DNA from: a virus
Lineage: Duplodnaviria; Caudoviricetes
Strand: one strand, 5' to 3'
DNA length: 64,000 nucleotides
Virus record (IMG/VR): IMGVR_UViG_3300011113_000415
Within the stretch, counting starts at the first letter, position 1; each line of letters begins with the position of its first letter. The translations under genes were made by a program, and so were the position numbers. This document shows positions 9,630 to 62,555 of this stretch, piece after piece. The notes below the pieces were generated by a model. It was given only the letters and a program-made list of their open reading frames with translations. It did not search any database and was not told the DNA's origin.

Positions 9630-9634
9630 ACAAG

Positions 9635-9640
9635 TATTTA
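9635..9640 (-). promoter_or_regulatory. Late promoter box (CATAAATAC) 5 nt upstream of the gp25 ATG
   Basis: TATTTA at 9635-9640 on the plus strand; no SD fits between box and ATG. Confidence 0.65.
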
Positions 9641-9650
9641 TGTTACTAAA

Positions 9651-11096
9651 TTACCAGAAACTAGCAATAAACTCAAAGGCCTCTTCGGCCAATGGTGCGG
9701 CATCAGCAAGAACTGAGTCTGCTCCACCTAATAAATCTGCAGGCAATTCAAATGCTGAAATATCAAGTTCGGTCAAATCAAGTGGTATGTCAAGTGCGGC
9801 CGACGAGAAGTCAATATTTGACAATATGTCCGATGCTCCGGGTATGTTGCTCAACAGGTCGGCGGCTCCTGGAAGATTACTAACTTTGCTGAGCAATTGC
9901 GAGGCACCTTGTATTTGATTCACTAGACCTTGTCCTGATTTTATTAATGACAAAATGTTGTTTGCACCTGGCACCTGAGACAGTACTGCTAATCCTGCTG
10001 ATGATTGTGCCAATTGTGTTAACAGTATTGATGAAGACTGGTTAACAGCAGCCACCTGAGAACTTTGTGCTCTAGCATCAACTCCCAACACAGGATTGGC
10101 AAATATGTTACGAGGTATCTTGTTGTTGCCAATTATGCTGTTGAAAGCGGTATCTATCACTGATCGATTTACTGTGTTAGAATAGCCTCGAGGAGTTTGA
10201 ACGCCTGTTTGTAAAGGATTACCTCCGCCGCTTACAGACTGGTTCACTGTGCCAAAATTCTGACCAAATATTGAATTAATGGCTGATGTAGTCAACTGAC
10301 CAATATCGCTACCACCTACTGTATTGTTTAACCAAGAGGTGGTTGCACTTATTCCATAGTTGGCCGCATTGTTGACCACTGCACCTAGATCTGTATTGGA
10401 ACTCAGTAGATTATTTGTAGTGGTAGACACAACTCCTAAATTAGATAGATTGTCGTAACTGGTTGCCAATGTACTTTGTTGTGTTATACTTTGTAGGGTT
10501 GGGTTAGACAGTATTGAATCCAAACTGTCTGCACCGCCTACCCCAGTCCATACTGTAGGACTACTGAGAGTGCTGACTAAGTTTGCAGGATCTTGATTGA
10601 TCAATTCTGCTGTGCCTGGTTTGATCAGCCCTGCTTGTTGCAACTGATCTGGGGTGAGTCCGTAGGTGCCCAGACCTTTTTCGTTGGTAATTTCTGTGGC
10701 CGGCTGATTCACTGCCGCGGCAGTAGACGAAAGTAATCCTTGTATCTGTGTTGTTGATAGTGGACCTACTGTACTGCTTGCCAACACTGGAGTATTGACA
10801 AAAGTTGAAATGTTTACTGGATTTTGTGCAGGAAGATTTGGTATTTTGGTTATCGCACTGCCTATTTGAGATATAGTGCTTGGTGTAATAGATGAGGTAA
10901 CTTGAGCCAGTGCTGTGGCAAGACCACCTTTGGCCTGAACCAAACTGTTTAATATATCACCAGACCGTAGTCCTGTTAGGCTACCAGTGTTGTACTGTTG
11001 ATTAAAGATGGCCAAGGCTTGGTCATAGGTAGATCCTGCTGGCCCAGTAACTTCAATTGGTTGACCTGTAGGGGTAACAAACTTAAAAACGTTCAT
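9651..11096 (-). CDS. Baseplate-associated protein of unknown function (~481 aa), Ser/Thr/Asn/Gly-rich, possible degenerate muramidase-like segment
   Basis: ORF track 9651..11114; likely start is the ATG at 11096, which overlaps the gp5-like stop (ATGA); lies inside the baseplate operon. Confidence 0.6.
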   Translation of the reverse strand: MNVFKFVTPTGQPIEVTGPAGSTYDQALAIFNQQYNTGSLTGLRSGDILNSLVQAKGGLATALAQVTSSITPSTISQIGSAITKIPNLPAQNPVNISTFVNTPVLASSTVGPLSTTQIQGLLSSTAAAVNQPATEITNEKGLGTYGLTPDQLQQAGLIKPGTAELINQDPANLVSTLSSPTVWTGVGGADSLDSILSNPTLQSITQQSTLATSYDNLSNLGVVSTTTNNLLSSNTDLGAVVNNAANYGISATTSWLNNTVGGSDIGQLTTSAINSIFGQNFGTVNQSVSGGGNPLQTGVQTPRGYSNTVNRSVIDTAFNSIIGNNKIPRNIFANPVLGVDARAQSSQVAAVNQSSSILLTQLAQSSAGLAVLSQVPGANNILSLIKSGQGLVNQIQGASQLLSKVSNLPGAADLLSNIPGASDILSNIDFSSAALDIPLDLTELDISAFELPADLLGGADSVLADAAPLAEEAFEFIASFW

Positions 11097-12601: not shown

Positions 12602-12610
12602 TGTTTTTCC

Positions 12611-15839: not shown

Positions 15840-16139
15840 TTAGAATCCTAACACGTTGCGTAGTGTGCTGAGTTTGGGCAGATAGATTTGAGTACCTGCC
15901 CGGAAGTCTAGTGGTGGTGCTTGTAGTGTGTTGGGGTTGCGTTGATAAAACACCCACCACAAGGCCGCAGTTGAATACAAGTCATAGGCCAACAAATCAG
16001 GTCTGTACTGATAGGTTTGATTGATCAACATTATGGTATCATCTGTTTCTTTGGGTATGGGCCGATTGGTCATGGTATCCAAAAAGAACTGACTGTATCC
16101 AGTGGCAAAATAAGGACTGGTTGCGTTGTAGGTGGCCAT
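15840..16139 (-). CDS. gp53: Baseplate wedge gp53-like / LysM-like protein (99 aa)
   Basis: YQYRPDLLAYDLYSTAALWWVFYQRNP is typical of the gp53/tail-X family. Confidence 0.7.
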   Translation of the reverse strand: MATYNATSPYFATGYSQFFLDTMTNRPIPKETDDTIMLINQTYQYRPDLLAYDLYSTAALWWVFYQRNPNTLQAPPLDFRAGTQIYLPKLSTLRNVLGF

Positions 16140-18211
16140 TACCAGAATCCTTTCTTGAGCAAATTGCCATTGGCATAGTCTCTCACACTGAATTCTCGGG
16201 TAACTTGATTGCGCGACTGCACCGGTAACAAACTTATCATGATGTCAATCTTGGTGGGCACATAAGTGGGTTGATTTTGTCCCAGAGTTGGTGGGGGCGG
16301 TCTGCAGATTTCTGCGCCATAACTGATGCCTTGACCACTGAACAAGTTCTGCAGGCGAGCCACAGCACCTGATATGGGATTGGTTGGTAAGTCTTGTCTG
16401 TTTCTGCGTGTGAGCATGTTGGTACCATTGATGTTGGTGGATCTAGCACGTATGTAGTCAACGTCACTGGGCAGGTTGTAATTAAAACTGGTTACCACGC
16501 AGGGGTGCTGGGAGAACTGATATTGCCCCAGACCAGACAAATATACCAAAGGTGGTGGCGCACCACGTTGCGGATCTTGGCCATAAAACATCTTGGTCAC
16601 CGAGCGAAAGAAATGTATCACTGCCAAGAGATAGTTGGCTTCGGTGGTATCTTGCGCTGTGAATGTGGCTGTGATACCCACTTGATCAGTGTAACTGCTC
16701 TTGTAAAAATAGCCTTTGTAGTTGCTGTGAGTCAAGGCATAACTTTCATAGTCGGCCTTGTAACTCATTTCAATCTTGGGGGTGTAGGGAAATATCACCC
16801 CATTTGTAATGGCCAGTGGCGCCAGTATGCCATCGGCATCCACATTGTACAAATAGTTGGCACCAGGTGCCAGGCTCAGTCGCACACGCCAATCACCGTT
16901 GTTGGCTATTTTCTTTTGCGCGGCTCGTACTGCCTGTTGTTGGGCTGCCTGACGTCCTACTTCCACCTGTGCGGCTTCATCTGCAACTGCATCATTGGCA
17001 CTTTGTAAAAGACGACCTTGTGCAATTTGTTCGGCGTCACTTACATAACCAGTATTGATAGGATTAACTGCCGCGGCGCTGGTGGTAGGATTAATCACTG
17101 TGGCAGTGATCTGTTGCGGCCCTACAAAACTAGGATCACTATTGACTTCTATCACAGGAACATTGGATCCGGCTGTGGTGGCTCGGTAACTGGCTGAGTT
17201 AGCATCAATGGAGGCTTCGTTGAATTGGATTGTTTCTTGTGCGGTAGTGATGTAGTTTTGATTGGTAGTTATGTCTTGGGTTGATTCAAAGATAATTTGA
17301 GCATTTTCTGCATTGTTGGCTTCTAGTACTGCTCGGCGTTCTGCACTGATGTTTGGATCAGCCAGTTCAGCATTGTTCTGTGCAATATAGCCTTCAGCAT
17401 TGGCAATATTTTGTTGTGCTGTTTGAATATTTTTAGTGGATCTTGCTATACCGTCTTGGCCTTGAGAGATGTAAGCGGCGGCTTGATCAATATTTTCAAG
17501 GTAAGGATTAGGCGACTGAGCATTGAGTCTGGCTGCCGAGGCTGCTGTCTGTTGATTGGCAGCGGCGATTGCGTCACCTGCACCTGTGTTAACTGGTGTG
17601 GCAGATGTGTTTATAGGATACTTGGGATTTTCTACCCAGTCACCGGCAGCATTTTTAATAAATGTGTCTGGCGGCCCAGCAAGATTGCTTTGACCTGGAT
17701 TTACTGGGGTGGCAACTGACTTGGCTCCTGCCCCAAACATCTCAAGCCTTACCTGGGCCGCCGAATCAGTTACGGCCAATACATCCGCAGGTATTAGTTG
17801 TTTGCCTGAGGCTTTGTCAACTGGATAACTTACTCCTGTCCTTGAATCAAATGCAAGTCCAGTTTGATCAACATACGCAGGTTGTGCGGTAGCAGATTTA
17901 TTCACTGCATTTGCGACATTTTTTGCTATTGGTGCATTAGGATCAACAAAATTATTAATGAATGCAGGATTGATATTTCTTGTTAGTTGTGCTGTTTGTT
18001 CAGCATTGAGAATGGTTAGACCGTATGCATCTTGAGTAGGGTTGGCGGCTGTGTCTGTTATTTGTCCAGGATAATTATCATCCCACCAGGCAGGATTGCC
18101 AGCCTCATCAGCAACCTGTTCACCTGAGTTGTCTTCTGTTACAGCGCCGTCCGACTGTATTTCTGCAGGCACATCTTCGGGTGCGGTCCAGATAAAATTT
18201 TCTTCATCCAT
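16139..18211 (-). CDS. Tail tube initiator / baseplate tail-tube cap (gp48/gp54-like C-terminal domain) with long low-complexity N-terminal extension (690 aa)
   Basis: C-terminal DWRVRLSL...GVIFPYTP...HSNY...FTAQ...GAPPPLVYLSGLGQY...PCVVTSFNYNLP is a tube-fold-like pattern; the first ~430 aa are Ala/Asn/Gln/Thr-rich. Confidence 0.55.
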   Translation of the reverse strand: MDEENFIWTAPEDVPAEIQSDGAVTEDNSGEQVADEAGNPAWWDDNYPGQITDTAANPTQDAYGLTILNAEQTAQLTRNINPAFINNFVDPNAPIAKNVANAVNKSATAQPAYVDQTGLAFDSRTGVSYPVDKASGKQLIPADVLAVTDSAAQVRLEMFGAGAKSVATPVNPGQSNLAGPPDTFIKNAAGDWVENPKYPINTSATPVNTGAGDAIAAANQQTAASAARLNAQSPNPYLENIDQAAAYISQGQDGIARSTKNIQTAQQNIANAEGYIAQNNAELADPNISAERRAVLEANNAENAQIIFESTQDITTNQNYITTAQETIQFNEASIDANSASYRATTAGSNVPVIEVNSDPSFVGPQQITATVINPTTSAAAVNPINTGYVSDAEQIAQGRLLQSANDAVADEAAQVEVGRQAAQQQAVRAAQKKIANNGDWRVRLSLAPGANYLYNVDADGILAPLAITNGVIFPYTPKIEMSYKADYESYALTHSNYKGYFYKSSYTDQVGITATFTAQDTTEANYLLAVIHFFRSVTKMFYGQDPQRGAPPPLVYLSGLGQYQFSQHPCVVTSFNYNLPSDVDYIRARSTNINGTNMLTRRNRQDLPTNPISGAVARLQNLFSGQGISYGAEICRPPPPTLGQNQPTYVPTKIDIMISLLPVQSRNQVTREFSVRDYANGNLLKKGFW

Positions 18212-18229
18212 GTTTGTTCCTTGACCCTG

Positions 18230-18235
18230 TATTTA
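18230..18235 (-). promoter_or_regulatory. Late promoter box for the baseplate operon
   Basis: TTAAATAC on the minus strand, followed by an AAGGA SD and ATG at 18211. Confidence 0.65.
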
Positions 18236-18324: not shown

Positions 18325-19218
18325 ATGACTGCAACTATCCGTGCCACACCCAAAACCAATTATCTCAACAACAGAGATATTCTCAAAGAGATACACCTAA
18401 GCAAAAATACCTACTGCTCTTTCCGAGATCCAGCAATCGATCATCAATTTGATATAATCCTGCCCTCTGTAAGCAAGATCAATCAAAAGACCATAGCCGA
18501 AGCCCGACGCAATCGTGCTGACCGTCTCAAGCGCGAAGGTATCATAGTTGACCCAAAGAAAATACCCAATACTGACTGTGTGTTTCGAGTCACTTGTTGG
18601 GATCACATACCCATGGCACCCAAGAAAGTCACCAAAGCCGAAGCCAAAAAACGGAAATTAGAGGACTTGTTGGAACTGGATGATGTGACTGAAGATCCTC
18701 TAGCGGACCTTGTAGAGGAGCCTATTCTGGATCCCACACACATGCGAGTTAACTTTCCTCCGTTCTGGCATTACCGAATTGATGACAATAAAGTGCCTTT
18801 TGTGGTGGGTAAAAGCCACTGGCGGGGTACCTTAGATGCGGGCGAGTTCTGTAAAGATCATGGCAAAATGACCCGAACTTTGGCCACAATGTTTATGAAA
18901 CTGTGCGAAAGATACGCCACAAGGTCAAACTGGCGTGGATACACCTACAACGAAGAAATGCGGGGTCAAGCCCTGCTACAACTGTCTCAAATAGGACTCC
19001 AGTTCGATGAATCAAAATCGCAGAACCCTTTTGCGTATTATACTGCCGCTATCACTAATAGTTTCACTCGTATCCTAAACATCGAAAAGAAAAACCAAAA
19101 CATTCGAGATGACATACTAGAAATGAACGGACTCAATCCTTCATGGACTCGCCAGAATTCTGGCAAGTATTCAATGGAAGCCTTGTCCGGACCGGTTGTG
19201 AGTAGCCTTGATGAGTAG
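18325..19218 (+). CDS. gp55: Late transcription sigma factor gp55-like (297 aa)
   Basis: NYLNNRDILKEI N-terminal motif and RYATRSNWRGYTYNEEM...FDESKSQNPFAYYTAAITNSFTRIL match T4 gp55; directly upstream of gp47 as in T4. Confidence 0.85.
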   Translation: MTATIRATPKTNYLNNRDILKEIHLSKNTYCSFRDPAIDHQFDIILPSVSKINQKTIAEARRNRADRLKREGIIVDPKKIPNTDCVFRVTCWDHIPMAPKKVTKAEAKKRKLEDLLELDDVTEDPLADLVEEPILDPTHMRVNFPPFWHYRIDDNKVPFVVGKSHWRGTLDAGEFCKDHGKMTRTLATMFMKLCERYATRSNWRGYTYNEEMRGQALLQLSQIGLQFDESKSQNPFAYYTAAITNSFTRILNIEKKNQNIRDDILEMNGLNPSWTRQNSGKYSMEALSGPVVSSLDE

Positions 19219-26711: not shown

Positions 26712-28853
26712 ATGGCCACATCCTTAACCCCAGAAGAAATTCAAGCCGCATTTGATCAATTCAATACAGAATTCAATCGAACTGGCAAAGTCAGTAAAGA
26801 AACAGCAGAAGCCTTTGCTGATGCCAAAGCCGGCATCAAAAACTATACCTATCAACTGAATCTCAGCCTAAAACAACTGGGCACTTCCATGTTGAACTTT
26901 GGCGAGTCCCTGAAAGACGGCAAACAAGGTGCATCGGTCTACAACGACAGTATCCAAGCAGGTGCCGACGCAATTGATGCATTTGCTGCCAAATTTGGTA
27001 TCTTGGGCAGGATCATTGGTGGCTTGGCCACAGCCGGTGCTAGATATGTGGTAGAAGTCAACAAGCAGAGTGACAAACTGTTCGAAAGTTATCAGTCACT
27101 CAGCAAGTTTGGTGCTGCCAGTGCTTCGGGCATGAGTGGTGTGTTCCAAAGCATGCAGGACTTTGGCTACAATATTGAACAACTGGGCGACTTTGGTAAT
27201 CTTATCAAACAAAATGCCGAATCATTGGCCTTGATGAGTGGCACGGTAAATCAAGGCACTCGAGTGTTCACTGACGTGGCCAAAGGAATTCAGAGAAGCG
27301 GCCTGCAAACAGAATTCCTGCGCATGGGCATGACCGTGAATGATATCAATTCGGGCATGGGCGGTTATTTGAGAATACAAACATTAACAGGAGCCGCACA
27401 GCGCAAGACCACAGGCGAACTCACACAAGGTGCCGCAGAGTATATCAAAAATCTGGATCTGTTGTCTAAACTCACAGGCAAAAACGCAGAAACAATTCAA
27501 CAAGAACGCGAAGCCAGAATGATGGAACAGCGATTTGTTGCTGTGCAAATGGAACTAGAAGACAAAGCCGCACAGGCCAGACTTGCTGGTAATGAGGCAC
27601 AGGCCAAGGCATTTGAAACACAAAAAGCATTAAATGATGAACTTATAGACAGGGCACCAACACAAGAACTGAAAACAGCAATTATAGGTGCTATGACCGG
27701 ATTTGCAGGCACCAACAAAGAAGCAGAAAAACTTTTGAGAACTGCACCAGTGGCATTTCAAGCAATAGCCAGACAAAGTGGCGAGGCTCCGGGTGCAATA
27801 CTTGACATGATTGGTACAGAAGGACAACAAAGAAGGCGCGAATTTACGGGATTGGGTAAAGTTGGTGGATTTGACGATGTGTTTATTCAATTGGGATCAA
27901 TTAACAAACTTCGCAAAGACAATCTTGAGCAAGAAAAGATAGCCGCAGAAGAGGCAAAAGATCAAAGGAAAAATTTAGACAAGGCCACAGAAGCACAGGT
28001 AGGATTGCGTCAGGAACAGATGGAAGCAACTCGTGCGCTTCAGACCTTTATCAATCAAGGTGTAAATCGTACCACCAGGGCTATGTCAAATCTCAGTGGT
28101 GCTATTGAAACTGTAACTAGCAAAATACCCGGCACAGGTACTACCACAGGCACCACGGGCACTGGACGGGGTAACGAAGCAGTGGGTGGCACAGCCAGCA
28201 TGGTCAATCAGACCACTACCATACTGAATCAGGCTGGTCAAGTGGTGGAACAGCGTCAAGGTGGCAACCGCAACTGGCGCAACAACAATCCAGGCAATAT
28301 TGAATACGGACCTTTTGCGATCAGCATGGGTGCCACTGGCAGTGATGGCAGATTTGCTATATTCCCTACCATGGACATGGGATACAAAGCCGCTGATGCA
28401 CTCATGAAAGGCAAGAACTATCAAAATCTCAGCATTGCTGATGCAATCAAACGCTGGGCTCCTCCTAATGAAAATGATACCAGAGCCTATCAACAGAGAT
28501 TCCAGGCAGCAGGATTTGATCTAAACAAACGCTACAGTGACCTTTCTCCAGTAGAACAACGCAGGTATTTAGAAACCAAGATGATGGTAGAAGGGGGCAA
28601 AGCAGGCACAGTCACAGCAGGCCCTGGAGGCACAATGTCGGGACCTGTTGACCGTTATGCATCTTCGTTGAGAAACGTGGACACCAATATAGCCAGTGCC
28701 CAGGCCTCAACTGAAACTTCATCTGCAATCAACAATGCTAGAAATCAAAATGATCTAATTGTGATACAAATAGCCAAAATGGATGAACTGATTGGGCTTA
28801 TGAAAGCCAATAATTCTATCAACAGCAAGATACTGCAACGAGCCCGGAACTAA
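26712..28853 (+). CDS. Tape measure / tail-associated protein with C-terminal lysozyme-like domain (~713 aa)
   Basis: Ala/Gln-rich helical region; RNWRNNNPGNI...GRFAIFPT...AIKRWAPPNENDTRAY muramidase-like motif; start MATSLTPEE. Confidence 0.7.
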   Translation: MATSLTPEEIQAAFDQFNTEFNRTGKVSKETAEAFADAKAGIKNYTYQLNLSLKQLGTSMLNFGESLKDGKQGASVYNDSIQAGADAIDAFAAKFGILGRIIGGLATAGARYVVEVNKQSDKLFESYQSLSKFGAASASGMSGVFQSMQDFGYNIEQLGDFGNLIKQNAESLALMSGTVNQGTRVFTDVAKGIQRSGLQTEFLRMGMTVNDINSGMGGYLRIQTLTGAAQRKTTGELTQGAAEYIKNLDLLSKLTGKNAETIQQEREARMMEQRFVAVQMELEDKAAQARLAGNEAQAKAFETQKALNDELIDRAPTQELKTAIIGAMTGFAGTNKEAEKLLRTAPVAFQAIARQSGEAPGAILDMIGTEGQQRRREFTGLGKVGGFDDVFIQLGSINKLRKDNLEQEKIAAEEAKDQRKNLDKATEAQVGLRQEQMEATRALQTFINQGVNRTTRAMSNLSGAIETVTSKIPGTGTTTGTTGTGRGNEAVGGTASMVNQTTTILNQAGQVVEQRQGGNRNWRNNNPGNIEYGPFAISMGATGSDGRFAIFPTMDMGYKAADALMKGKNYQNLSIADAIKRWAPPNENDTRAYQQRFQAAGFDLNKRYSDLSPVEQRRYLETKMMVEGGKAGTVTAGPGGTMSGPVDRYASSLRNVDTNIASAQASTETSSAINNARNQNDLIVIQIAKMDELIGLMKANNSINSKILQRARN

Positions 28854-28856: not shown

Positions 28857-28862
28857 TAAATA
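28857..28862 (+). promoter_or_regulatory. Late promoter box 7 nt before the portal ATG
   Basis: CTAAATAA, no SD. Confidence 0.65.
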
Positions 28863-28869
28863 ACACACT

Positions 28870-30648
28870 ATGGCTGGATGGCGAAAATATTTCAAAGTGG
28901 CTGACCTCTCAGGTCAGATGAGCCCAATTTCGGGCGGCAGAGATTCAGGACTGCCGGGTTATCCCCGCAACGATGGCCGCGGAACCAATCTGGCACAGAC
29001 AGATTTTGCGTTTCGCAACTATGCATCACGACTGCCAGAAGTGTACTCAGGACACCCAAATCGTATCGAACGCTACAATCAGTATGAAAACATGGATGCT
29101 GACTCCGAAGTCAATGCCTGTTTGGACATTATTGCTGAGTTCTCTACACAACTCAGCGAAGACAACAACACGCCTTTTGAAATCAACTACAACGACGAGC
29201 CCACTGATCATGAAATAGAGATTATTCGCAAGCAGATGCAACAGTGGACCAAACTCAATAAACTGGATCAGCGCATCTTCAAACTGTTCCGCAATACCAT
29301 CAAGTACGGTGATCAAGTGTTTGTGCGTGACCCCGAAACATTTGAAATGTACTGGGTGGATATGAGCAAGGTCAGCCGAGTGATTGTGAACGAATCCGAA
29401 GGCAAACGTCCAGAGCAGTACATCATTCGTGACATCAATCCCAACTTCCAGAATCTAACTGTGGCAGCCAAGACCACCACAGACTTCATGGTCAACCCAC
29501 CCACAGGCGGTGGCTACAATCAAGGCTCGGGCTATACCATGCCCAATACTGCCATGACAGGCACCAGCAGATTCAGCCGTGCTGTGAACGAAACCTGTAT
29601 TGATGCCAAACACGTGGTGCATCTAAGTCTTAACGAAGGCTTGGACACATTCTGGCCCTTTGGCAAATCCATACTTGAAAACATTTTCAAAGTATTCAAA
29701 CAAAAAGAACTGTTGGAAGATGCCTTGTTGATCTATCGTGTACAACGTGCTCCTGAGCGCAGAGTGTTCAAGATTGATGTGGGCAACATGCCATCACACT
29801 TGGCTATGGCCTTTGTGGAACGTGTGAAAAACGAAATGCACCAGCGCAGAATTCCCACATTTGGTGGCGGTGGTGGCAATATCATGGATAGTAGTTACAA
29901 TCCGCTATCAATCAATGAAGACTTCTTTTTCCCAACAGGTGCAGACGGACGTGGCTCATCAGTAGATGTGTTGCCCGGCGGTCAAAATCTAGGCGAAATC
30001 GACGATTTAAAGTATTTCAACAATAAAATGGCCCGTGGTTTGCGTGTGCCTAGCAGTTATTTGCCCACTGCTCCCGATGATTCTGAGCGCACCATGCAGG
30101 ACGGCAAAGTGGGCACAGCATTGATTCAAGAGTACAGATTCAACCAGTATTGTGAGCGATTACAAGCACTAATCATGCAGAAACTGGATGACGAATTCAA
30201 GATGTTCCTGCGCTGGAGAGGCTTCAACATTGACGCTGGCCTGTTCCAACTGCGATTCAATCCGCCACAAAATTTTGCCAGTTACCGTCAAGCCGAGATG
30301 GACACAGCACGTATCTCTAGTTTTACCAGCCTAGAGCCCTTGCCCTACATGTCAAAACGCTTTATGCTAGAGCGTTTCTTGGGTCTCAGCAAGGACGAAA
30401 TTGAACGCAACGAAACCATGTGGCGTGAAGAACGTGATCAGCCTGAACTGCAAACCACACAGGGACAGGATCTACGTTCAATTGGCATCACCCCAGCCGG
30501 CATGGAAACTGATATTGCCACTGGTGAAGAAATGGCCAACTTACAGGCACCTGGAGCAGAGGGTGCTGTATCAGCCGCCCCTGCTGGCGCTGTAGGAGGA
30601 ACTATTCCCGGTGTTCAAGCACCGGCTGCCACACCCGCAGGATTATAA
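28870..30648 (+). CDS. gp20: Portal vertex protein
   Basis: RYNQYENMDADSEVNACLDII, LLEDALLIYRVQRAPERRVFKIDVGNMP, EDFFFP, LPGGQNLGEIDDLKYF. Confidence 0.95.
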   Translation: MAGWRKYFKVADLSGQMSPISGGRDSGLPGYPRNDGRGTNLAQTDFAFRNYASRLPEVYSGHPNRIERYNQYENMDADSEVNACLDIIAEFSTQLSEDNNTPFEINYNDEPTDHEIEIIRKQMQQWTKLNKLDQRIFKLFRNTIKYGDQVFVRDPETFEMYWVDMSKVSRVIVNESEGKRPEQYIIRDINPNFQNLTVAAKTTTDFMVNPPTGGGYNQGSGYTMPNTAMTGTSRFSRAVNETCIDAKHVVHLSLNEGLDTFWPFGKSILENIFKVFKQKELLEDALLIYRVQRAPERRVFKIDVGNMPSHLAMAFVERVKNEMHQRRIPTFGGGGGNIMDSSYNPLSINEDFFFPTGADGRGSSVDVLPGGQNLGEIDDLKYFNNKMARGLRVPSSYLPTAPDDSERTMQDGKVGTALIQEYRFNQYCERLQALIMQKLDDEFKMFLRWRGFNIDAGLFQLRFNPPQNFASYRQAEMDTARISSFTSLEPLPYMSKRFMLERFLGLSKDEIERNETMWREERDQPELQTTQGQDLRSIGITPAGMETDIATGEEMANLQAPGAEGAVSAAPAGAVGGTIPGVQAPAATPAGL

Positions 30649-30651
30649 ATA
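30644..30651 (+). promoter_or_regulatory. Full T4 late consensus TATAAATA overlapping the portal stop
   Basis: 4 nt before ATG 30656. Confidence 0.7.
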
Positions 30652-30655
30652 CAAC

Positions 30656-30874
30656 ATGATCCTGAATGAAATTTACGAGCGTGCGCCCAAAGGCTATCAA
30701 GATGTTGCGGCAGACAACACACAGCCCCACCTGGGTCAACTGCGTAAAACCAAACTCACACTCAAGCAGTTGAACAAACTGCGCCGTATGCAAGATACTC
30801 GCACCTATGAGTATGCGGAAAAACTCAAACTGATCCGCAAACAGTATGCACCGCCAGCACAGCCTGCGATGTAA
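30656..30874 (+). CDS. Small basic protein (72 aa) between portal and prohead core genes
   Basis: MILNEIYER...RKTKLTLKQLNKLRRM; start assigned from the promoter position. Confidence 0.65.
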   Translation: MILNEIYERAPKGYQDVAADNTQPHLGQLRKTKLTLKQLNKLRRMQDTRTYEYAEKLKLIRKQYAPPAQPAM

Positions 30875-30924: not shown

Positions 30925-30943
30925 CCTATAGTGTAAATATAGG
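30925..30943 (+). promoter_or_regulatory. Late promoter TAAATA (30934-39) embedded in the inverted repeat CCTATA/TATAGG
   Basis: Followed by hairpin CTGCC/GGCAG (30951-65) and AGGAG SD. Confidence 0.6.
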
Positions 30944-30996
30944 TATAGATCTGCCATGAGGGCAGGACTACCCAACACACCCTTTAGGAGACATGA

Positions 30997-31821
30997 ATGA
31001 GCAAGAACCAGTTTGAACAATTGATCGAATACGTGATCAATGACGAAGAAGCCAAGGCCAAAGAACTTTTCCACCAAATTGTTGTGGCCAAGAGTCGTGC
31101 TATCTATGAAGACCTCATGGATGAAGAAGCCGAAGAACAAGAAGAAAGCATTGAAGAAGACAATGCCATGGGTGAAGAGCCTGTTGAAGTTGACACAGAC
31201 ATGAGCGAAAGCCTTGGTGGAAGCCAAGCCCAAGACATGATCGACGACGTGGAAATGGAAGAACAAGGCATGAGCGAAGATGACAGCGAATTCGACGATG
31301 AAGCAGAAACTGCCGGCAAAGATCTAACACACGACATCGAAGATGCACATGACGAAGGTGATCTTGAAAATCGCGTGGTTGATTTGGAAGACAAACTAGA
31401 CGAACTCATGGCAGAATTTGAAGCCATGATGGACGGTGGTGACGCCAAAGACATGGACGACACACCCGACATGACCGATCTTGAAGTGCAAGACGACGAG
31501 TTTGAAACTGAAGGCGCCATGCCCATGGAAGAAGCCATCAATCTCAAGCAAGTACACCCAAAGACTACAACAGCCGAAGAAGGTGGTACCAACACCAAGT
31601 CAACAGTGGCATTCAACAGCGGCAAGACAGGCATGGCAGGCGCACCAGTCAAAATGACCGGTGACACAGCACAAGGTCGTCCTGCTCCAACTACCAAGGA
31701 CTTGATTGGCAAAGTGGGCAACACACCTGCTCAAGGCACACAAGATCCCAAGGCCGCACCCAAGCCAGTGACATCACAAGCCGCAGGCGTGAACACACGT
31801 TCACCATTGCCAAAGGCCTAA
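30997..31821 (+). CDS. Highly acidic prohead core/scaffold-type protein (gp67-like position)
   Basis: Glu/Asp-rich 274 aa lying between portal and protease; AGGAG SD. Confidence 0.65.
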   Translation: MSKNQFEQLIEYVINDEEAKAKELFHQIVVAKSRAIYEDLMDEEAEEQEESIEEDNAMGEEPVEVDTDMSESLGGSQAQDMIDDVEMEEQGMSEDDSEFDDEAETAGKDLTHDIEDAHDEGDLENRVVDLEDKLDELMAEFEAMMDGGDAKDMDDTPDMTDLEVQDDEFETEGAMPMEEAINLKQVHPKTTTAEEGGTNTKSTVAFNSGKTGMAGAPVKMTGDTAQGRPAPTTKDLIGKVGNTPAQGTQDPKAAPKPVTSQAAGVNTRSPLPKA

Positions 31822-31826
31822 TCTAA

Positions 31827-32474: not shown

Positions 32475-32485
32475 GGAGTAAAAGC

Positions 32486-33586: not shown

Positions 33587-33607
33587 ACAAAGAAAAAGGA
33601 GACAGAA

Positions 33608-36054: not shown

Positions 36055-36103
36055 CACAATATTTAAATCAATGACAGCACAGCCCAAAATAAACCAATGA
36101 CCA

Positions 36104-37699: not shown

Positions 37700-37705
37700 T
37701 AAATA
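37700..37705 (+). promoter_or_regulatory. Late promoter box; 15-mer TTGCGGTAAATATAC is identical to 53023-53037
   Basis: Direct sequence comparison. Confidence 0.7.
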
Positions 37706-37724
37706 TACTCAGAGACTCTAATTT

Positions 37725-53028: not shown

Positions 53029-53034
53029 TAAATA
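53029..53034 (+). promoter_or_regulatory. Late promoter box 7 nt before ATG 53042
   Basis: GGTAAATAT. Confidence 0.65.
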
Positions 53035-53041
53035 TACAACT

Positions 53042-53836
53042 ATGGCCAAACTCAACTCCGGAACCAGAATTTATGGCAACGTTACAATAGATACGTTTGT
53101 CACAGCCACAGGCAACGTGATTGGTGGTAACGTATTGACTGGTGGATTAATATCAGCCACATCAACAATCACAAGTGCTGCCAATATCACTGGTGGCAAC
53201 ATCTTGACTGGTGGATTAATCAGTTCAACTGGCACTATTACAGGTTCAAGTCATCTTGGTTCTGTAGTGTCAGTAACTGCCAATGTCACTGGTGGCAACG
53301 TGTTAACAGCAGGATTGATTTCTGCCACATCAACAATCACCTCAGCAGCCAACGTGATTGGTGGAAATATTACCACAACTGGTGTAGTCACAGCAACTGG
53401 TAATATCACAGGTGGCAATGTTTTAACTGGCGGGTTGGTCAGTGCCACTGCTAACGTTGCAGGTGGAAATCTTACAACAGTTGGGCAAATTTCAGCAACT
53501 GGTAATATCACTGGTAATTATTACATTGGAAATGGTGCGTTCTTAACTGGACTCAACGTAGGTGCAGCCAGCCAAATTGCCAACGGTGCTACGACTATCA
53601 GTATCCCCCAGGCTTCGGGCAATATTACTTTCAATGTGGCGGGTGCGTCAAATACTGTGGTTATAAACCTGGGCAGTTTGACCATGTACGGCACATTTGC
53701 GGGACCAAAAACGCTGAACGCTAACGTGTCGGTGGCAGATTCAGTAAATGCCCTGCTGTTGGGCCCTGTTACTCTGGCAAATAACTACAACATCACAGTG
53801 CCCGATACATCAACGCTGTATGTTTTTGCACCATAA
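53042..53836 (+). CDS. Short fibre-like protein with 17-aa repeats (264 aa)
   Basis: MAKLNSGTRIYG; the same SATxNITGGNxLTGG repeats. Confidence 0.7.
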   Translation: MAKLNSGTRIYGNVTIDTFVTATGNVIGGNVLTGGLISATSTITSAANITGGNILTGGLISSTGTITGSSHLGSVVSVTANVTGGNVLTAGLISATSTITSAANVIGGNITTTGVVTATGNITGGNVLTGGLVSATANVAGGNLTTVGQISATGNITGNYYIGNGAFLTGLNVGAASQIANGATTISIPQASGNITFNVAGASNTVVINLGSLTMYGTFAGPKTLNANVSVADSVNALLLGPVTLANNYNITVPDTSTLYVFAP

Positions 53837-53857
53837 ATACAGCCAGGAATAGAATTT

Positions 53858-55066
53858 ATGTCATTATCACTAGACGGCACAACAGGTATATCAGCAACGG
53901 GTAACATCATATCTAGTGGTGGTATTATCTCCGCTACAGGCAACATCTACGGCGGAAACATTATTGGTACTTTGGTAGTTTCTACTGCTACATTTTCGGG
54001 TAACGTCACAGCAGGTAACTTGCTGACCGGTGGGTTAATAAGTGCAACTGGCACAGTCACAGGATCAAGTTTCCTTGGCTCAGTGGTTTCTGTCACAGCC
54101 AACGTAACCGGTGGCAACTTGCTCACAGGTGGACTTATATCAGCCACTTCTACAATCACATCAGCGGCCAATATCACCGGTGGCAACTTGCTCACAGGTG
54201 GATTGATAAGTTCAACTGGTACAATCACTGGCTCAAGCCATTTAGGATCAGTTGTGTTTGTAACAGCCAACATAACTGGTGGTAACGTACTAACTGCTGG
54301 CGTTGTAAGTGCAACAGGCAACATTAACGCCAACTTTTTTATTGGCAACGGTAGTCAGTTATCGGGTCTAAGTGCCAGTAAAATATTCAACGGAACATCA
54401 GAAGCCAACATTGGTGCATCAGGTGGCAATGCTAACATTACAATTGGTGGTACATCAAACGTGGTGGTTGTTGCAACCACTGGTGTACTAGTTACTGGTA
54501 TCACAAGTGCAACAGGTAACATTACAGGTGGTAATTTGACCACAGCCGGTATCTTAACAGTAAACTCGGGCAATGCTTCAGGTGCAGTTATTGTTAATGC
54601 AGGCGGCAACGCTGTAGGTAATATTGGCAGTGCCACAACCTACTTCAACAGATTATATGCTCAAGCCACCACAGCACTCTACGCTGACTTGGCTGAGGTT
54701 TACAAAAGTGATGCACCATATCCCCCAGGTACTGTGTTGGTGTTTGGTGGTACGCAAGAAGTCACAATGAGCACAGTGAGTCACGATACCAAAATTGCTG
54801 GAGTAGTTTCTACGCACCCAGCACACGTTATGAATTCAGGCTTGCAATCAGAATTCACTGTGGAAGTTGGCTTGATTGGTCGTGTGCCGTGTCGTGTAAT
54901 TGGACCAATCTCAGCAGGTGATCGTGTGGTGTCAAGCAATCGTGCTGGTGTTGCCGAACGCCTAGACATGTCACAGTATCAACCAGGCGTAATCATTGGC
55001 AAGGCAGTAGAAAGTTATTCAGGCTTAGATGTGGGCACGATTGAAGTTGTGGTTGGTAGACTATAA
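53858..55066 (+). CDS. Fibre-like protein (402 aa) sharing the C-terminal domain of the 1881-aa protein
   Basis: TAAATA at 53834 and AGGA SD; YFNRLYAQATTALYADLAE...AGVVSTHPAHVMN...GLIGRVPC. Confidence 0.75.
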   Translation: MSLSLDGTTGISATGNIISSGGIISATGNIYGGNIIGTLVVSTATFSGNVTAGNLLTGGLISATGTVTGSSFLGSVVSVTANVTGGNLLTGGLISATSTITSAANITGGNLLTGGLISSTGTITGSSHLGSVVFVTANITGGNVLTAGVVSATGNINANFFIGNGSQLSGLSASKIFNGTSEANIGASGGNANITIGGTSNVVVVATTGVLVTGITSATGNITGGNLTTAGILTVNSGNASGAVIVNAGGNAVGNIGSATTYFNRLYAQATTALYADLAEVYKSDAPYPPGTVLVFGGTQEVTMSTVSHDTKIAGVVSTHPAHVMNSGLQSEFTVEVGLIGRVPCRVIGPISAGDRVVSSNRAGVAERLDMSQYQPGVIIGKAVESYSGLDVGTIEVVVGRL

Positions 55067-56883: not shown

Positions 56884-58257
56884 TTAACTAGATGGTTGAT
56901 AGGGTTGAGTTGGAGGATAGGGATTGGCAGGTTTGTTGCCACCTTGATCACCATTGCTCAAATCGGGTTGCAGGGCCTGACTCAAACTTTGGCGACTTGG
57001 AATGTTGCCCATGTCTGTGGTCGGCGTAGTGTATGTATTGTTGACAAAACTCGACCGTAAAGTATTGTTGGTGGCTCCAGGTGTGAGTTGTGTGCGTACA
57101 TCACTTTCAATCTTGACCCAAGATCTGCCATTGTAGCGAAATAGTCGATTGGGAAAGTAATCCAATCTCAGTGCATACTGTCCAGCAACAGGATTCACAG
57201 GAAAATTCACACCGGCAGTGACGGGCAAACCATTGGGTGCGCGGCCATCGCCTGTGAGATAACCTGCGGTGTATCCATCTCCGCGTGGAGAATTGCCTTC
57301 GTTGGCCACTGTTCTTGATGCATCAGTTAAGGTATAGTCTGCGGTATAAGTTGCCGTGGAGGGATTGGCAGGTGTACCATCAGGATTGGTGGCCACAATA
57401 TAAAATTTCACAACATCAAAACCGGACTTGGGTATCTCTGCTTCGGCTTGAATCAATATAGCGTCATTGAGTTCAAGATCCTTGGGTCGAGTACTCATCC
57501 GGTCTGCCAATGTATCAGGATTGGATTTTTCTTGCCAATATTGTGTGTTGGTGATGTCCGTGCCCGGCGGCACATTCTTGGTACTGATATAATAGGTGTC
57601 TCCCGACAGCACCGTGACACCCCCAGGGTAAAAATTGCCAGGATCCCAAATGTTGAGTGGCTCAAATGGTTGTTTGGTGATTTCGTTGAACTCTTGAGCA
57701 TTGACCATGGGTGTGCATTTCACTCGCCACAAGTGAGGCAACCAAGTTTGGCTAAAGCCTTCAGAAGCAAATGCCGCATCCTGTATCACGTAAAATTTTG
57801 GTAAGGCACGTGGTATAGTTTGATTTAGTGGATTGTAGTCACGCAGATTGGGCAGTTCCAGCACATCGCCTGACATAAGTTTGCGTCCCACAGTGTCAAT
57901 CATGTTGTTGTAGTGAAACGTTATGAATATGGTATCATTGTTCAAGAACAAGCCAAATTGTGTGAGATCAAAATCAATGTCTTGAGTATTGTAAACTCCA
58001 CGCATGACATACACATCCGGATCGTAGTTGCGGTCTCTGTTTTCTAACAACAGCAAATCTTCGATAAAAAGTGGATTTGATTCTGAATACTTGGGAAGAG
58101 TAGCGTCATTGTCCCCGGTGTTGTCGTTGGTCAGCGGACCCAGGTATTTGTGCAAATACATATCAACGCCTCCAACCTGATACATCTCCGATATTGTTCT
58201 ATCGAAAAACTGGTAGTCGGCTGTTCTGTTGGGTCTGAATAAACTTAGGCGTGGCAT
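56884..58257 (-). CDS. gp14: Neck protein gp14-like (457 aa)
   Basis: EMYQVGGVDMYLHKY, DLLLLENRDRNYD, FGLFLNNDTIFITF, GDVLELP...FYVI; adjacent to gp15. Confidence 0.75.
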   Translation of the reverse strand: MPRLSLFRPNRTADYQFFDRTISEMYQVGGVDMYLHKYLGPLTNDNTGDNDATLPKYSESNPLFIEDLLLLENRDRNYDPDVYVMRGVYNTQDIDFDLTQFGLFLNNDTIFITFHYNNMIDTVGRKLMSGDVLELPNLRDYNPLNQTIPRALPKFYVIQDAAFASEGFSQTWLPHLWRVKCTPMVNAQEFNEITKQPFEPLNIWDPGNFYPGGVTVLSGDTYYISTKNVPPGTDITNTQYWQEKSNPDTLADRMSTRPKDLELNDAILIQAEAEIPKSGFDVVKFYIVATNPDGTPANPSTATYTADYTLTDASRTVANEGNSPRGDGYTAGYLTGDGRAPNGLPVTAGVNFPVNPVAGQYALRLDYFPNRLFRYNGRSWVKIESDVRTQLTPGATNNTLRSSFVNNTYTTPTTDMGNIPSRQSLSQALQPDLSNGDQGGNKPANPYPPTQPYQPSS

Positions 58258-58264
58258 AGTCTAG

Positions 58265-58270
58265 TATTTA
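58265..58270 (-). promoter_or_regulatory. Late promoter box 7 nt before the gp14 ATG
   Basis: CATAAATAC on the minus strand. Confidence 0.65.
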
Positions 58271-60275: not shown

Positions 60276-60994
60276 TGCCCACACTGATAGTAGGTTGTAG
60301 TTTTTGTAGCACCCTTGGTGAACAAAACCCAGATCGATGGCAATCGCGTCCTGACGTAGTGGTACAAGCAACATCAGGAACAGGTAATCAAGCCATGGCT
60401 GCAAGAGTAGCATTTGAATGTTCTAGGTACAATTATAATCGAGTGATTGTGATATGGACAGGAATCAATCGACTTGATACTATGATCACTCGAGATCTAC
60501 ATGAAACGTATCCAGGCGCCAAACAATGTAGACCAGAATACAGTTTCTGTACTCCGTTAGAACAAAGTGTTTGGTACCATTCGGGTGGCCAGGCTGGATC
60601 TTGGACATGGAAAGATTGTCCATCAGAAATACATCAAATTTTTAAAACACAATATCTTGGAGCAAGTCCGAGATATCTTTCAGATATCAGTTTATGCAGT
60701 GTGTTTTACACACAAAGTTTTTTAGAAAAATTAGATATCAAATATCAAATGAGTTTTATCTACAATCCTCTAGCACAATGGTCACACACTAGACACGAGC
60801 ATTATTTTGGAACAATAGATAAACATTCTGCTTACTACAATCTAGTAGACTGGGCAAAGATAGATATCACCAACACTGCCTTTGAATGGGCCAATCAAGA
60901 CCTCAATCGATTGGAAATTGATCAATTGCATCCAACTCGAGACGCTATGAGAGAGTGGATAGATCTTACCTTTAACATAGACATTGCCGCGTAA
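60275..60994 (+). CDS. SGNH-hydrolase-like protein (239 aa)
   Basis: LIVGCSF (block I), SGTGN (block II), DQLHP (block V). Confidence 0.55.
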   Translation: MPTLIVGCSFCSTLGEQNPDRWQSRPDVVVQATSGTGNQAMAARVAFECSRYNYNRVIVIWTGINRLDTMITRDLHETYPGAKQCRPEYSFCTPLEQSVWYHSGGQAGSWTWKDCPSEIHQIFKTQYLGASPRYLSDISLCSVFYTQSFLEKLDIKYQMSFIYNPLAQWSHTRHEHYFGTIDKHSAYYNLVDWAKIDITNTAFEWANQDLNRLEIDQLHPTRDAMREWIDLTFNIDIAA

Positions 60995-61006
60995 CTTTGC
61001 TATAAT
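60978..61006 (+). promoter_or_regulatory. Sigma70-type promoter whose predicted +1 coincides with the exonuclease ATG
   Basis: TAGACA-17 nt-TATAAT with extended TG; ATG at 61013. Confidence 0.7.
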
Positions 61007-61012
61007 CTAGCA

Positions 61013-61534
61013 ATGCACCTGATGATTGATCTTGAGGGTTTGGCAACAGGCCCTGACACTACTATTCTTACCATAGCCGCCCAGGCCTTTGATCCGTTTG
61101 GGTCAGGCTATTACGATCAGCATTACTATGCTAGAATCACACCGGAAAGCCAGGAAAATCGCGCCATTGATGACGGTACAATTGCATGGTGGGCTACACA
61201 ACCAGAACACGCTAGAGAAGAAGCATTTGGCGAGCAAGATCGTATCCCCTTGGATCAAGCATTAGATGAGTTAGGCCGGTTGATTTGGCACTCCAAGATG
61301 ATCTGGGCCCAAGGTCCTACATATGACTGTAACATACTTGAACACGCCTACAAGAGTTATGGCAAAGCCTTGCCTTGGAAATACTATCAGGTACGAGATT
61401 CGAGAACTGTGTTTAGCCTATGGCCTGAACTGCCTATTCCTCCTACCAGCCATCATGCGCTAGAAGACTGTCGCAGACAAATTGGTATGCTTCAAGATAC
61501 GCTTAAATATCTCAACGTAAAGGAACTCAAATGA
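61013..61534 (+). CDS. DEDDh 3'-5' exonuclease (DnaQ-like fold)
   Basis: HLMIDLEGL, WAQGPTYDCNIL, HHALED. Confidence 0.85.
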   Translation: MHLMIDLEGLATGPDTTILTIAAQAFDPFGSGYYDQHYYARITPESQENRAIDDGTIAWWATQPEHAREEAFGEQDRIPLDQALDELGRLIWHSKMIWAQGPTYDCNILEHAYKSYGKALPWKYYQVRDSRTVFSLWPELPIPPTSHHALEDCRRQIGMLQDTLKYLNVKELK

Positions 61535-62196
61535 TCATTGGAGTATGTGGATTCATTGGCTCGGGAAAAGATACTATTGCTGATTATCTCACTAACTTTC
61601 ATGGATTCCGCAGAGAATCATTTGCATCAACATTAAAAGATGCTGTTAGCCAAGTGTTTGGATGGGACAGAACCCTACTGGAAGGGCGCACTAAACAGGC
61701 TCGTGAGTGGCGTGAGCGTGTGGATCCTTGGTGGGCAGAACGCTTGAACATGCCCACACTTACTCCACGTTGGATATTGCAGTACTGGGGTACAGAAGTG
61801 TGCAGAGCCGGTTTTCACGATGACATTTGGATTGCCAGTTTAGAAAACAAACTACGACACAGCCAAGATGATATTGTTATTTCGGACTGCCGTTTTCCCA
61901 ACGAGATTAAGGCCATTAAGAACGCCGGCGGGCGTGTGATTAGAGTAGTGCGTGGCCCTGAACCTGCCTGGTATGATGCGGCTGTAAGCGTAAACCGTGG
62001 ACCCAATGGCAACTCAACCTGGGCATTAAGTCACAAAAAACTTGAAAAATTGGGCATCCATGCCTCAGAAACTGCCTGGGTAGGCACTCAATTTGATGCG
62101 GTGCTAGACAACAACACTACAGTGGATGACTTGTATCAACAGGTCAATGATCTGCTTGCAAGTCTCCTGGACGCCAAGGCACAGTCAAACGTTTGA
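61531..62196 (+). CDS. gp1: Deoxynucleoside monophosphate kinase
   Basis: GFIGSGKDT P-loop, FASTLKD, TPRWILQYWGTE, ISDCRFPNE. Confidence 0.9.
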   Translation: MIIGVCGFIGSGKDTIADYLTNFHGFRRESFASTLKDAVSQVFGWDRTLLEGRTKQAREWRERVDPWWAERLNMPTLTPRWILQYWGTEVCRAGFHDDIWIASLENKLRHSQDDIVISDCRFPNEIKAIKNAGGRVIRVVRGPEPAWYDAAVSVNRGPNGNSTWALSHKKLEKLGIHASETAWVGTQFDAVLDNNTTVDDLYQQVNDLLASLLDAKAQSNV

Positions 62197-62488
62197 CCTC
62201 TTCCACGCAGTTCAAGCAAATGGTGCGTAGGTTTGATAGTTCAGTGTTGGTCATGCGACCATCCACATGATAAACTAACAGTTGACTGGCGTATCTTGAT
62301 TTAAACCCACAGCGATCGCACACAGTTTTTTTCTTATAGCCTGCTGACTGCCAACGTGCTACTGGTGTTTTTTCTCTGCGCCCACGACGTATACAATGAT
62401 CGCATCGGTTGCGATAATAGACTGTTTCACCGCGACGGTAGTTCACAGCCACTGGGCGTTGCTTACATGCTCCACAAATGGGTCTCAT
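62144..62488 (-). CDS. Zinc-finger / HNH-like protein (114 aa)
   Basis: CxxC x3 plus YHVDGRMTNTELSNLRTICLNC; TAAATA box at 62494-99. Confidence 0.7.
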   Translation of the reverse strand: MRPICGACKQRPVAVNYRRGETVYYRNRCDHCIRRGRREKTPVARWQSAGYKKKTVCDRCGFKSRYASQLLVYHVDGRMTNTELSNLRTICLNCVEEVKRLTVPWRPGDLQADH

Positions 62489-62555
62489 GTGCTTATTTAG
62501 TAAAGCGAACCTTTATAAAGGGCAACACAACCAGGGTGGTTTTAGTCTCTATCGA

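Follow-up and report, generated by a model that had tools for sequence, protein, structure and literature searches.

The DNA studied here is a 64-kb stretch with 45% GC content from an uncultured freshwater giant phage (IMG/VR record IMGVR_UViG_3300011113_000415; "the window" hereafter means this whole stretch). It holds a T4-core-like morphogenesis region, and in eight of its genes the hexamer TAAATA lies only 4-7 nucleotides (nt) upstream of the ATG start codon. These fused sites, and the mode of translation initiation they may entail, are the subject of this analysis. The baseplate genes of the window are gp6-, gp25-, gp5- and gp53-like, a gene for a gp55-family late sigma factor is followed by gp47 and gp46, and the head block runs in the order portal, 72-amino-acid (aa) protein, 274-aa protein in prohead-core position (core274), protease, scaffold and major capsid. 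Genes for giant fiber-like proteins, neck and sheath, an exonuclease, a deoxynucleoside monophosphate (dNMP) kinase and an HNH endonuclease are present as well. On the DNA level the window shows negligible similarity to cultured phages, while comparison of portal proteins places it closest, among cultured phages, to the jumbo phages Atu_ph07, PA5oct, GAP32, CBB and 121Q (46-50% identity). At least 599 related contigs were found in IMG/VR. Genome-wide tests employed three related records, G001 (200 kb; the closest relative, with a DNA identity of only ~80-90%), G003 (332 kb) and G004 (337 kb; a complete genome bearing terminal repeats), whole-record pattern counts were taken on the near-complete records G002-G004, and the mode of initiation was surveyed gene by gene at 80 portal-centered related loci.

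The eight fused sites are the following, with d as the distance from the final A of TAAATA to the first base of the ATG:

9255..9640, minus strand, gp25-like baseplate wedge gene: box 9635-9640, d=5, ATG 9629
26701..28853, plus strand, 713-aa virion/tail protein gene: box 26701-26706, d=5, ATG 26712
28857..30648, plus strand, portal gene: box 28857-28862, d=7 (ACACACT), ATG 28870
30646..30874, plus strand, 72-aa protein gene: box 30646-30651, d=4, ATG 30656
34897..36065, minus strand, TPR plus glycosyltransferase-9 protein gene (385 aa): box 36060-36065, d=5, ATG 36054
53029..53836, plus strand, 264-aa protein gene: box 53029-53034, d=7 (TACAACT), ATG 53042
56884..58270, minus strand, 457-aa virion structural protein gene: box 58265-58270, d=7 (CTAGACT), ATG 58257
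62144..62499, minus strand, HNH endonuclease gene: box 62494-62499, d=5, ATG 62488

All of them had been claimed in an earlier note on this DNA, and all were found at the distances claimed. PHROG or Pfam matches back the gene labels gp25-like, portal, HNH, exonuclease, protease, scaffold, capsid, sheath and TPR + Glyco_transf_9. Two labels of that note found no such backing, namely "tape measure" for the 713-aa protein, whose sole match is a C-terminal endolysin-like domain, and "gp14" for the 457-aa protein, which matches "virion structural protein" and nothing more specific. The 72-aa protein is a homologue of PA5oct gp150, a virion protein of that phage. Four of the eight sites lie at divergent junctions, the narrowest being that of the 713-aa gene, where just 23 nt separate its ATG (26712) from the ATG of the divergent hub gene (26688). 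At two promoters, box and preceding gene overlap: the TAA stop codons of the portal gene and of the 264-aa gene constitute the first three bases of the boxes 30646-30651 and 53834-53839. A portal start upstream of ATG 28870 is excluded, because an in-frame TAA lies three codons 5' of it (28861-28863). Homing endonuclease genes of the HNH and GIY-YIG types repeatedly bear the box-plus-ATG module, in the window at 62144-62499 and in G004 at L095:12962-13720, L097:4440-5072 and L097:13539-14078. This suggests that such mobile genes travel with, or readily gain, a late expression signal of ~14 nt.

The arrangement is highly non-random, which we regard as confirmed. With 23 copies versus 31 expected, TAAATA is under-represented in the window, and still eight copies are followed, after 4-7 nt, by an ATG with an open frame of 60 codons or more, where 0.29 would be expected (P = 2.4e-10). 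A second peak at distances of 16-21 nt comprises six sites with a Shine-Dalgarno (SD) sequence in between, three further copies precede strong-SD genes by 51-90 nt, and only about four copies fall inside coding sequence. In total, 19 of the 23 copies occupy promoter-like positions. Control hexamers gave flat distance distributions without such peaks. The same analysis, extended over the clade, revealed 16, 35 and 31 fused sites in G001, G003 and G004, respectively, against 1.3-2.8 expected, and the whole-record counts amounted to 39-43 versus 12-16 for a reversed control.

The likely reader of the box is encoded in the window itself:

18325..19218, plus strand, gp55-family late sigma factor gene (297 aa): phrog_12791 1.3e-75, phrog_234 2.9e-24

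T4 gp55 itself falls in phrog_234, and each of the records G001-G004 carries one copy of a gp55-family sigma gene. Only residues 177-278 of the 297-aa protein align to the 181-position T4 gp55 family, while its N-terminal ~170 residues are an extension that is common with the Rak2-group family phrog_12791. TAAATA agrees with the T4 late box (TATAAATA) at six of eight positions, and the 8 nt upstream of the box revealed no strong conservation among 90 fused and 63 SD-led sites. For the phages CBB and GAP32 the late promoter ATAAATA was predicted before structural genes, and a gp55-like sigma factor was reported for CBB (PMC5259590). In the T4 open complex, the adenines -12, -9 and -8 of the -10-like element reside in pockets of gp55 (PMC7892883). 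This places TATAAATA at -13 to -6 and +1 on the sixth base after the box, and by the same T4 geometry +1 falls on the A of the ATG at d=5. In agreement with this geometry, A is the most frequent base at position 6 after the box in SD-led TAAATA promoters (34 of 63), and G is nearly excluded from positions 1 and 2 of the same set. The A of the ATG is position 6 after the box at d=5 and position 5 at d=4. In the d=7 class a conserved A occupies position 5, for example in AACAACT or ACACACT before the ATG, which suggests a 3-nt leader ACU for these putative transcripts. The sites of this class (window 28857-28872, 53029-53044 and 58255-58270; loci L002-L080) share a conserved A-C-(T/C) immediately ahead of the ATG, after which GCA or GCC is often found, whereas d=6 is rare (7 of 187 in the related loci). 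Profile searches of G002-G004 gave no match for gp33 (phrog_254) or gp45 (phrog_223), which does not prove their absence, and the study on CBB likewise found neither (PMC5259590). The view that TAAATA behaves as a T4-type late promoter with a -10 element only is supported, and comparison among the genomes gives good backing to its reading as a promoter of putatively leaderless mRNAs.

On the side of translation, the genes in leaderless format have no SD sequence upstream: the gap comprises only 4-7 nt, and the predicted duplex energies with the anti-SD sequence range from +1.8 to -4.1 kcal/mol, while strong-SD genes reach -7.3 to -11.4 kcal/mol. The start codons differ too. After TAAATA at d=4-7 we counted 90 ATG, 2 GTG and 3 TTG, with 4 CTG as a noise control, compared to 138 ATG, 25 GTG, 37 TTG and 16 CTG after AGGAG. 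The noise-corrected share of non-ATG starts after AGGAG is thus ~20%, and the contrast in ATG use has a noise-corrected Fisher P of ~6e-7. In E. coli, unleadered mRNA needs an AUG start codon, and the near-exclusive use of ATG after the fused box fits this requirement. In five of the eight genes, including the 264-aa gene, the ATG is the first possible start of the open frame, and in most of the eight no alternative SD-led start exists within the first 45 codons. Downstream SD-led starts were consequently rejected for most genes; the exception is the 457-aa gene, in which a strong SD precedes a further in-frame ATG, yet the first 15 residues of its product are conserved. Translational coupling was rejected as a general explanation as well. 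No co-directional open reading frame (ORF) ends within 40 nt at 37 of the 90 fused sites (~40%), and since these sites lack an upstream co-directional gene and four window sites are divergent, coupling or reinitiation cannot be the general mechanism. It might apply to a minority such as the portal gene followed by the 72-aa gene.

The fusion of box and ATG is conserved across the clade and is gene-specific. Orthologues of the gp25, portal, 72-aa, TPR-glycosyltransferase, 457-aa and HNH genes keep the box 4-7 nt from the ATG at protein identities of 51-96%, with differing spacer bases and N-termini conserved from their very beginning. For example, the gp25 orthologues show d=5, 5 and 4 in G001, G003 and G004 with different spacers, and their N-terminus is conserved from residue 1 onward. 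The TPR-glycosyltransferase gene has d=5 in both G001 and G004, the 457-aa gene d=5 in G003 and d=7 in G004 with the conserved N-terminus MPRLSL, and the HNH gene d=4 in G003 and d=5 in G004. The 713-aa gene has d=5 in G001; in G003 its box instead lies 25 nt upstream. The survey of related loci gave the following numbers:

72-aa gene: leaderless format at 80 of 80 loci
Portal gene: leaderless format at 64 of 79 loci, strong SD at 9 of 79
TPR-glycosyltransferase gene: leaderless format at 12 of 13 loci
713-aa gene: leaderless format at 10 of 31 loci
Prohead-core-position gene: leaderless format at none, strong SD at 78 of 78 loci
Scaffold gene: leaderless format at none, strong SD at 59 of 61 loci
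Major capsid gene: leaderless format at none, strong SD at 51 of 51 loci
276-aa gene: leaderless format at none, strong SD at 18 of 18 loci

Portal loci in leaderless format mostly have d=7 with the conserved A at position 5. Several portal lineages that lack the fusion have the cggTAAATA box as well, located 22-26 nt upstream and separated from the ATG by an AAGGA SD. As the portal box is either fused or located 22-26 nt upstream, and in cultured relatives the box stands 24-45 nt before several of the orthologous genes (the PA5oct portal gene excepted), one promoter has moved onto or off the start codon in the course of evolution.

Other late genes of the window use the same box with a leader:

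5771..9233, minus strand, gp6-like baseplate wedge gene: box 9228-9233, 16-nt leader, short-leader class
16139..18235, minus strand, 690-aa virion protein gene: box 18230-18235, 18-nt leader with AAGGA
30934..34819, plus strand, core274-protease-scaffold-major capsid operon: box 30934-30939, 57-nt leader, strong SD on core274, scaffold and capsid
36104..37030, plus strand, 276-aa protein gene: box 36104-36109, 90-nt leader with TAAGGAGA
37700..37727, plus strand, promoter of the 982-aa gene: TAAATA, 19-nt leader, short-leader class
53834..53860, plus strand, promoter of the 402-aa gene: TAAATA (its TAA being the stop of the 264-aa gene), 18-nt leader with AGGAA
59484..59510, plus strand, promoter of the head-tail adaptor gene: TAAATA, 18-nt leader with GGAG, ATG 59508
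61504..61533, plus strand, promoter of the dNMP kinase gene: TAAATA, 21-nt leader with AAGGA, ATG 61531
62556..63998, plus strand, tail sheath gene: box 62556-62561, 51-nt leader with AGGAG, gene from 62613

The strong SDs that the earlier note had assigned to core274, scaffold, capsid, sheath and the 276-aa gene were borne out by duplex energies of -7.3 to -9.3 kcal/mol. Promoter-proximal late genes form a graded series: eight genes with a fused box and no SD, six with a short leader and a moderate SD (-2.9 to -6.1 kcal/mol), and the prohead-core-position, 276-aa and sheath genes, whose leaders are long and whose SDs are strong (-7.3 to -9.3 kcal/mol). The protease, the hub and several other genes have a weak SD or none and belong to neither end, having neither a fused box nor a strong SD. 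In G003 and G004 the box of the sheath gene lies 24-27 nt upstream, with AAGGA. A mini-ORF of 14 codons in leaderless format (62567-62611; TAAATA, d=5), which ends 1 nt before the sheath ATG, is absent in G003 and G004 and probably incidental. For the 276-aa protein an ESM Atlas search gave nothing usable, which leaves its label as a high-copy protein a putative one. Behind its gene, a 10-bp hairpin with a T run (37047-37081) resembles an intrinsic terminator; the descending arm of this hairpin doubles as the AGGAGG SD for the gene that follows (ATG 37079), and folding would sequester this SD. One further TAAATA (11199-11204, minus strand) is located inside the gp5-like hub gene, 84 nt before ATG 11114 of a 487-aa gene, and may be an internal late promoter.

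The same design is found at promoters of the sigma70 type. The promoter claimed at 60978-61006 was confirmed as TAGACA-17-TATAAT, matches the consensus at 11 of 12 positions, is preceded by TG and ends 6 nt before the exonuclease ATG at 61013:

60978..61534, plus strand, exonuclease gene with sigma70-type promoter: leaderless format, early/middle class

In the orthologues of G003 (TATACT) and G004 (TATAAT) the -10 box again stands exactly 6 nt before the ATG. Furthermore, relatives show a TATAAT-ATG peak at d=6 with 4, 5 and 8 sites versus 0-3 at most neighboring distances, mostly with TTGAC at -35. As this fusion recurs, the leaderless design is not confined to late virion genes. Another promoter of this type, TTGACC-17-TATAAT (58291-58319; 11 of 12, TG-extended), is followed by a 16-nt leader with GGAG before ATG 58342. 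This ATG is the more likely start of the 402-aa ORF at 58270-59478 (plus strand), which at first sight begins 12 nt away from the divergently oriented 457-aa gene.

We propose the following mechanism. TAAATA would be the -10-like core of late promoters, read by host RNA polymerase together with the phage gp55-family sigma factor, and transcription would most likely begin 5-6 nt after the box. In the eight window genes, and in ~30 genes per genome of the relatives, the ATG lies 4-7 nt past the box, so that the mRNA would start at the A of the AUG (d=4-5) or at most ~3 nt before it (d=7). Without an SD, such an mRNA would be translated as leaderless, presumably through recognition of its 5'-terminal AUG by 70S ribosomes or with assistance of IF2. 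Other late genes use the same box with a leader of 16-21 nt and a moderate SD, or of 50-90 nt and a strong SD. The mode of each gene is kept over the clade, with prohead core, scaffold, capsid and sheath always under a strong SD, while the leaderless format is found on enzymes, homing endonucleases and minor virion parts and hence most likely denotes a class of low expression demand. Some early promoters of the sigma70 type follow the same design. That a late box read by gp55 and fused to the AUG gives leaderless mRNA, and that this most likely marks a low-demand class, is in our view probable, though by no means certain.

The earlier note had gone further and suggested that the phage tunes stoichiometry by reserving leaderless initiation for low-copy virion genes. 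One part of this idea stands: no abundant structural gene was ever found in leaderless format (51-78 loci each). Otherwise the idea is only partly supported: low-copy genes with SD occur, the leaderless set is rich in enzymes, and early promoters of the sigma70 type share the design. Among 20 annotated leaderless-format genes of G004 there are sugar-nucleotide enzymes, radical SAM enzymes, phosphoesterases, three to four homing endonucleases and a few minor virion proteins; several have no informative match, and most encode non-virion enzymes or endonucleases. The label "low-demand late genes" thus suits the class better than "low-copy virion genes". The dosage model, which needs such rewording, is plausible, although only correlative. 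The further inference of the note, a host that must be good at translating leaderless mRNA, does not follow, because inefficient translation could be the very purpose; to our knowledge, leaderless initiation by 70S ribosomes is universal.

Several points weigh against our interpretation. Head-tail adaptor, gp6-like wedge and giant fiber-like proteins are SD-led, though low-copy by analogy to T4. In gene order, the 72-aa protein is the counterpart of T4 gp67, lying between the portal and the core, protease, scaffold and capsid genes, and T4 gp67 is a multi-copy prohead core protein; no sequence similarity was found between the two, and their equivalence is positional only. About one quarter of the boxes contain the stop codon of the upstream gene, which makes reinitiation possible there, and leaderless-format genes can also be read through from upstream promoters. 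The distance to the start site is borrowed from T4, whose sigma factor comprises 185 aa versus 297 aa here, and since gp33 and gp45 were not detected, late initiation may differ in detail from that of T4. Finally, a leader of 2-3 nt is predicted for the d=7 class, and the model accounts neither for the near absence of d=6 nor for a 3-nt leader being preferred to one of 1-2 nt.

The alternative that survives best accepts the leaderless design and disputes that its role is to set stoichiometry. The clade, or host translation, would use the design out of general habit, at early and late promoters alike, and it might be favored for compactness or for insulation from read-through transcripts or from SD-directed control. 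This agrees with the sigma70-type promoters TTGAC-17-TATAAT-6-ATG that show the same fusion, with the minimal box-plus-ATG module of homing endonucleases, and with the SD-led state of the low-copy wedge and adaptor genes. However, a mere habit hardly explains why the mode is conserved per gene over 80 loci, with all abundant head genes on one side and the portal and 72-aa genes on the other, nor the graded series from no SD over moderate SD with short leader to strong SD with long leader. We consider such a habit a real possibility, if a minor one, and the same holds for its corollary that the design is absent from abundant genes only because they need maximal translation.

A second alternative acknowledges TAAATA as a promoter and assumes that translation proceeds mainly from read-through transcripts, either by S1-type binding of the A/U-rich box or by termination-reinitiation. 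Many sites indeed lie few nt past a co-directional gene, ~25% have the upstream stop in the box, as between portal and 72-aa gene, and no convincing terminators precede most sites. Nevertheless, ~40% of the sites have no co-directional gene within 40 nt, and half of the window sites are divergent, one with an intergenic distance of just 23 nt. That no start codon but ATG is used agrees with recognition of a 5'-terminal AUG, the sigma70 -10 boxes at exactly 6 nt cannot be ribosome-binding sites, and the same late box also occurs 16-90 nt upstream of genes with an ordinary SD. We therefore consider this scenario improbable, and we give as little credit to its variant in which the closeness of box and ATG reflects genome compaction and not leaderless mRNA. 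It is more improbable still that start sites or start codons were misjudged, with another initiation distance or true starts downstream, so that the mRNAs would not be leaderless. The sigma factor, 112 residues longer than T4 gp55, the missing matches for gp33 and gp45, and the strong-SD ATG at codon 33 of the 457-aa gene could be taken in its favor. Yet orthologous N-termini are conserved from residue 1-3 at 58-95% identity, in five of eight genes the frame has no earlier start than the ATG, SD-led promoters in the same genomes peak in A at +6, in agreement with T4 geometry, and the tight spacing of 4-7 nt with ATG only would otherwise be unexplained. That an A/T-rich hexamer meets start codons by chance, for which only the shortness of the motif speaks, is refuted by the flat control hexamers, by P values from 2e-10 to 1e-27 and by the preserved spacing of orthologues over related loci, and we attribute practically no probability to it.

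Returning to a leaderless low-demand class, one might speculate further that a conserved initiation code, set gene by gene and built on one promoter type, operates in a large clade of T4-related jumbo phages from aquatic habitats. Its three tiers would be the fused box, the short leader with moderate SD and the long leader with strong SD, and the leaderless tier would be a separately controllable regulon. This is a tentative idea that we would rather bet against. Just as tentatively, this tier might be shifted late in infection by phage-made translation components or by the balance of initiation factors, and it might be immune to SD-directed nucleases or repressors.

Besides the promoters, further features were observed. 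Permuted (two-piece) tmRNA genes were detected with ARAGORN in G001 (99182-99597, minus strand) and G004 (196894-197230, plus strand), whose tags ANDEQFALAA and ANASNDETFALAA end with FALAA; in G003 ARAGORN found none. Between convergent genes, the window has a gene-free gap of 430 nt (25200-25633, minus strand) that is ~85% conserved in G001. In this gap a terminator-like hairpin (25596-25614) precedes a TAAATA box on the minus strand (25553-25558). The gap gave no Rfam match, and its folding energy is ordinary (z = 0.23).

Late promoters of the gp55 type, leaderless mRNAs and -10 boxes adjoining ORFs are each known already. Our literature searches on leaderless late mRNAs in T4-like and jumbo phages revealed nothing relevant, and a systematic fusion of late box and AUG, conserved per gene in hundreds of uncultured jumbo phages, was not found in the literature searched. 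New here are also the conservation of initiation mode tabulated by gene, the finding that portal lineages switch one promoter from fused to SD-led or back, the preference for A at +6 where promoters are SD-led, the functional composition of the leaderless set and the test of the stoichiometry model. If the proposed mechanism is true, the phage sets protein output by choosing the initiation mode from one promoter type, and gene finders gain a rule for start calls in these genomes. Box plus ATG would then be a minimal expression module of ~14 nt, seemingly exploited by homing endonucleases, and it becomes a question how an SD-using host translates dozens of leaderless late messages.

Compared with known systems, the late promoters of T4 are similar in several respects. 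They have an A/T-rich -10-only box without a -35 element before virion genes, they depend on a phage-encoded gp55-family sigma factor, and their predicted start lies ~6 nt after the box, where an A peak is found in the clade's SD-led promoters. In contrast, the T4 box TATAAATA spans 8 nt at -13 to -6, while the core in the clade has 6 nt and -12 is not conserved; T4 has the gp33 co-activator and the gp45 clamp, while neither family was detected in the relatives; and the sigma factor of the clade, at 297 aa, is extended at its N-terminus. As gp33 and gp45 went undetected, the clade belongs to the full T4 late system only in part. T4 shows no excess of box-N4-7-ATG (16 versus 20 in the control), and its late mRNAs therefore have leaders.

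The nearest cultured relatives are jumbo phages of the Rak2/PA5oct/CBB/Atu_ph07 type, whose portal proteins are 46-50% identical. PA5oct and Atu_ph07 share the box before the homologue of the 713-aa gene and before prohead core genes, and Atu_ph07, but not PA5oct, has it before the portal gene. In these two phages, however, the box lies 24-45 nt upstream with an SD-like sequence in between, and neither has a genome-wide excess of the fused form (39 versus 58 and 36 versus 56 in the control, respectively).

In the Thermus phages phiYS40 and P23-45, many middle and late transcripts are leaderless. In Deinococcus-Thermus, a pattern of "-10 region adjacent to ORFs" was reported (PMC12340547, which cites Sevostyanova 2007). 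Both resemble the clade in having a -10 element few bp before the start codon as a systematic leaderless mode. The difference is that the Thermus phages use host-type -10 elements in a phylum whose genes are normally leaderless, whereas here a phage-specific gp55-type box is found beside classical strong SDs, in a T4-related jumbo phage whose host is tentatively a proteobacterium. The cI mRNA of phage lambda, transcribed from PRM, is the classical leaderless mRNA of E. coli; its promoter is of the sigma70 type, and +1 is the A of the AUG. In this respect it equals the exonuclease gene described here, with its -10 box, 6 nt and ATG. While lambda has a single such regulatory gene, the phages of this clade have dozens per genome under two promoter classes. 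Finally, the cultured SAR11 Pelagibacter myophage HTVC008M contains TAAATA-N4-7-ATG 24 times versus 12 in the control, mostly with d=5 and with 20 sites on the forward strand. It differs from the clade in its 147-kb genome, its affiliation with the Kyanoviridae and its low-GC marine host.

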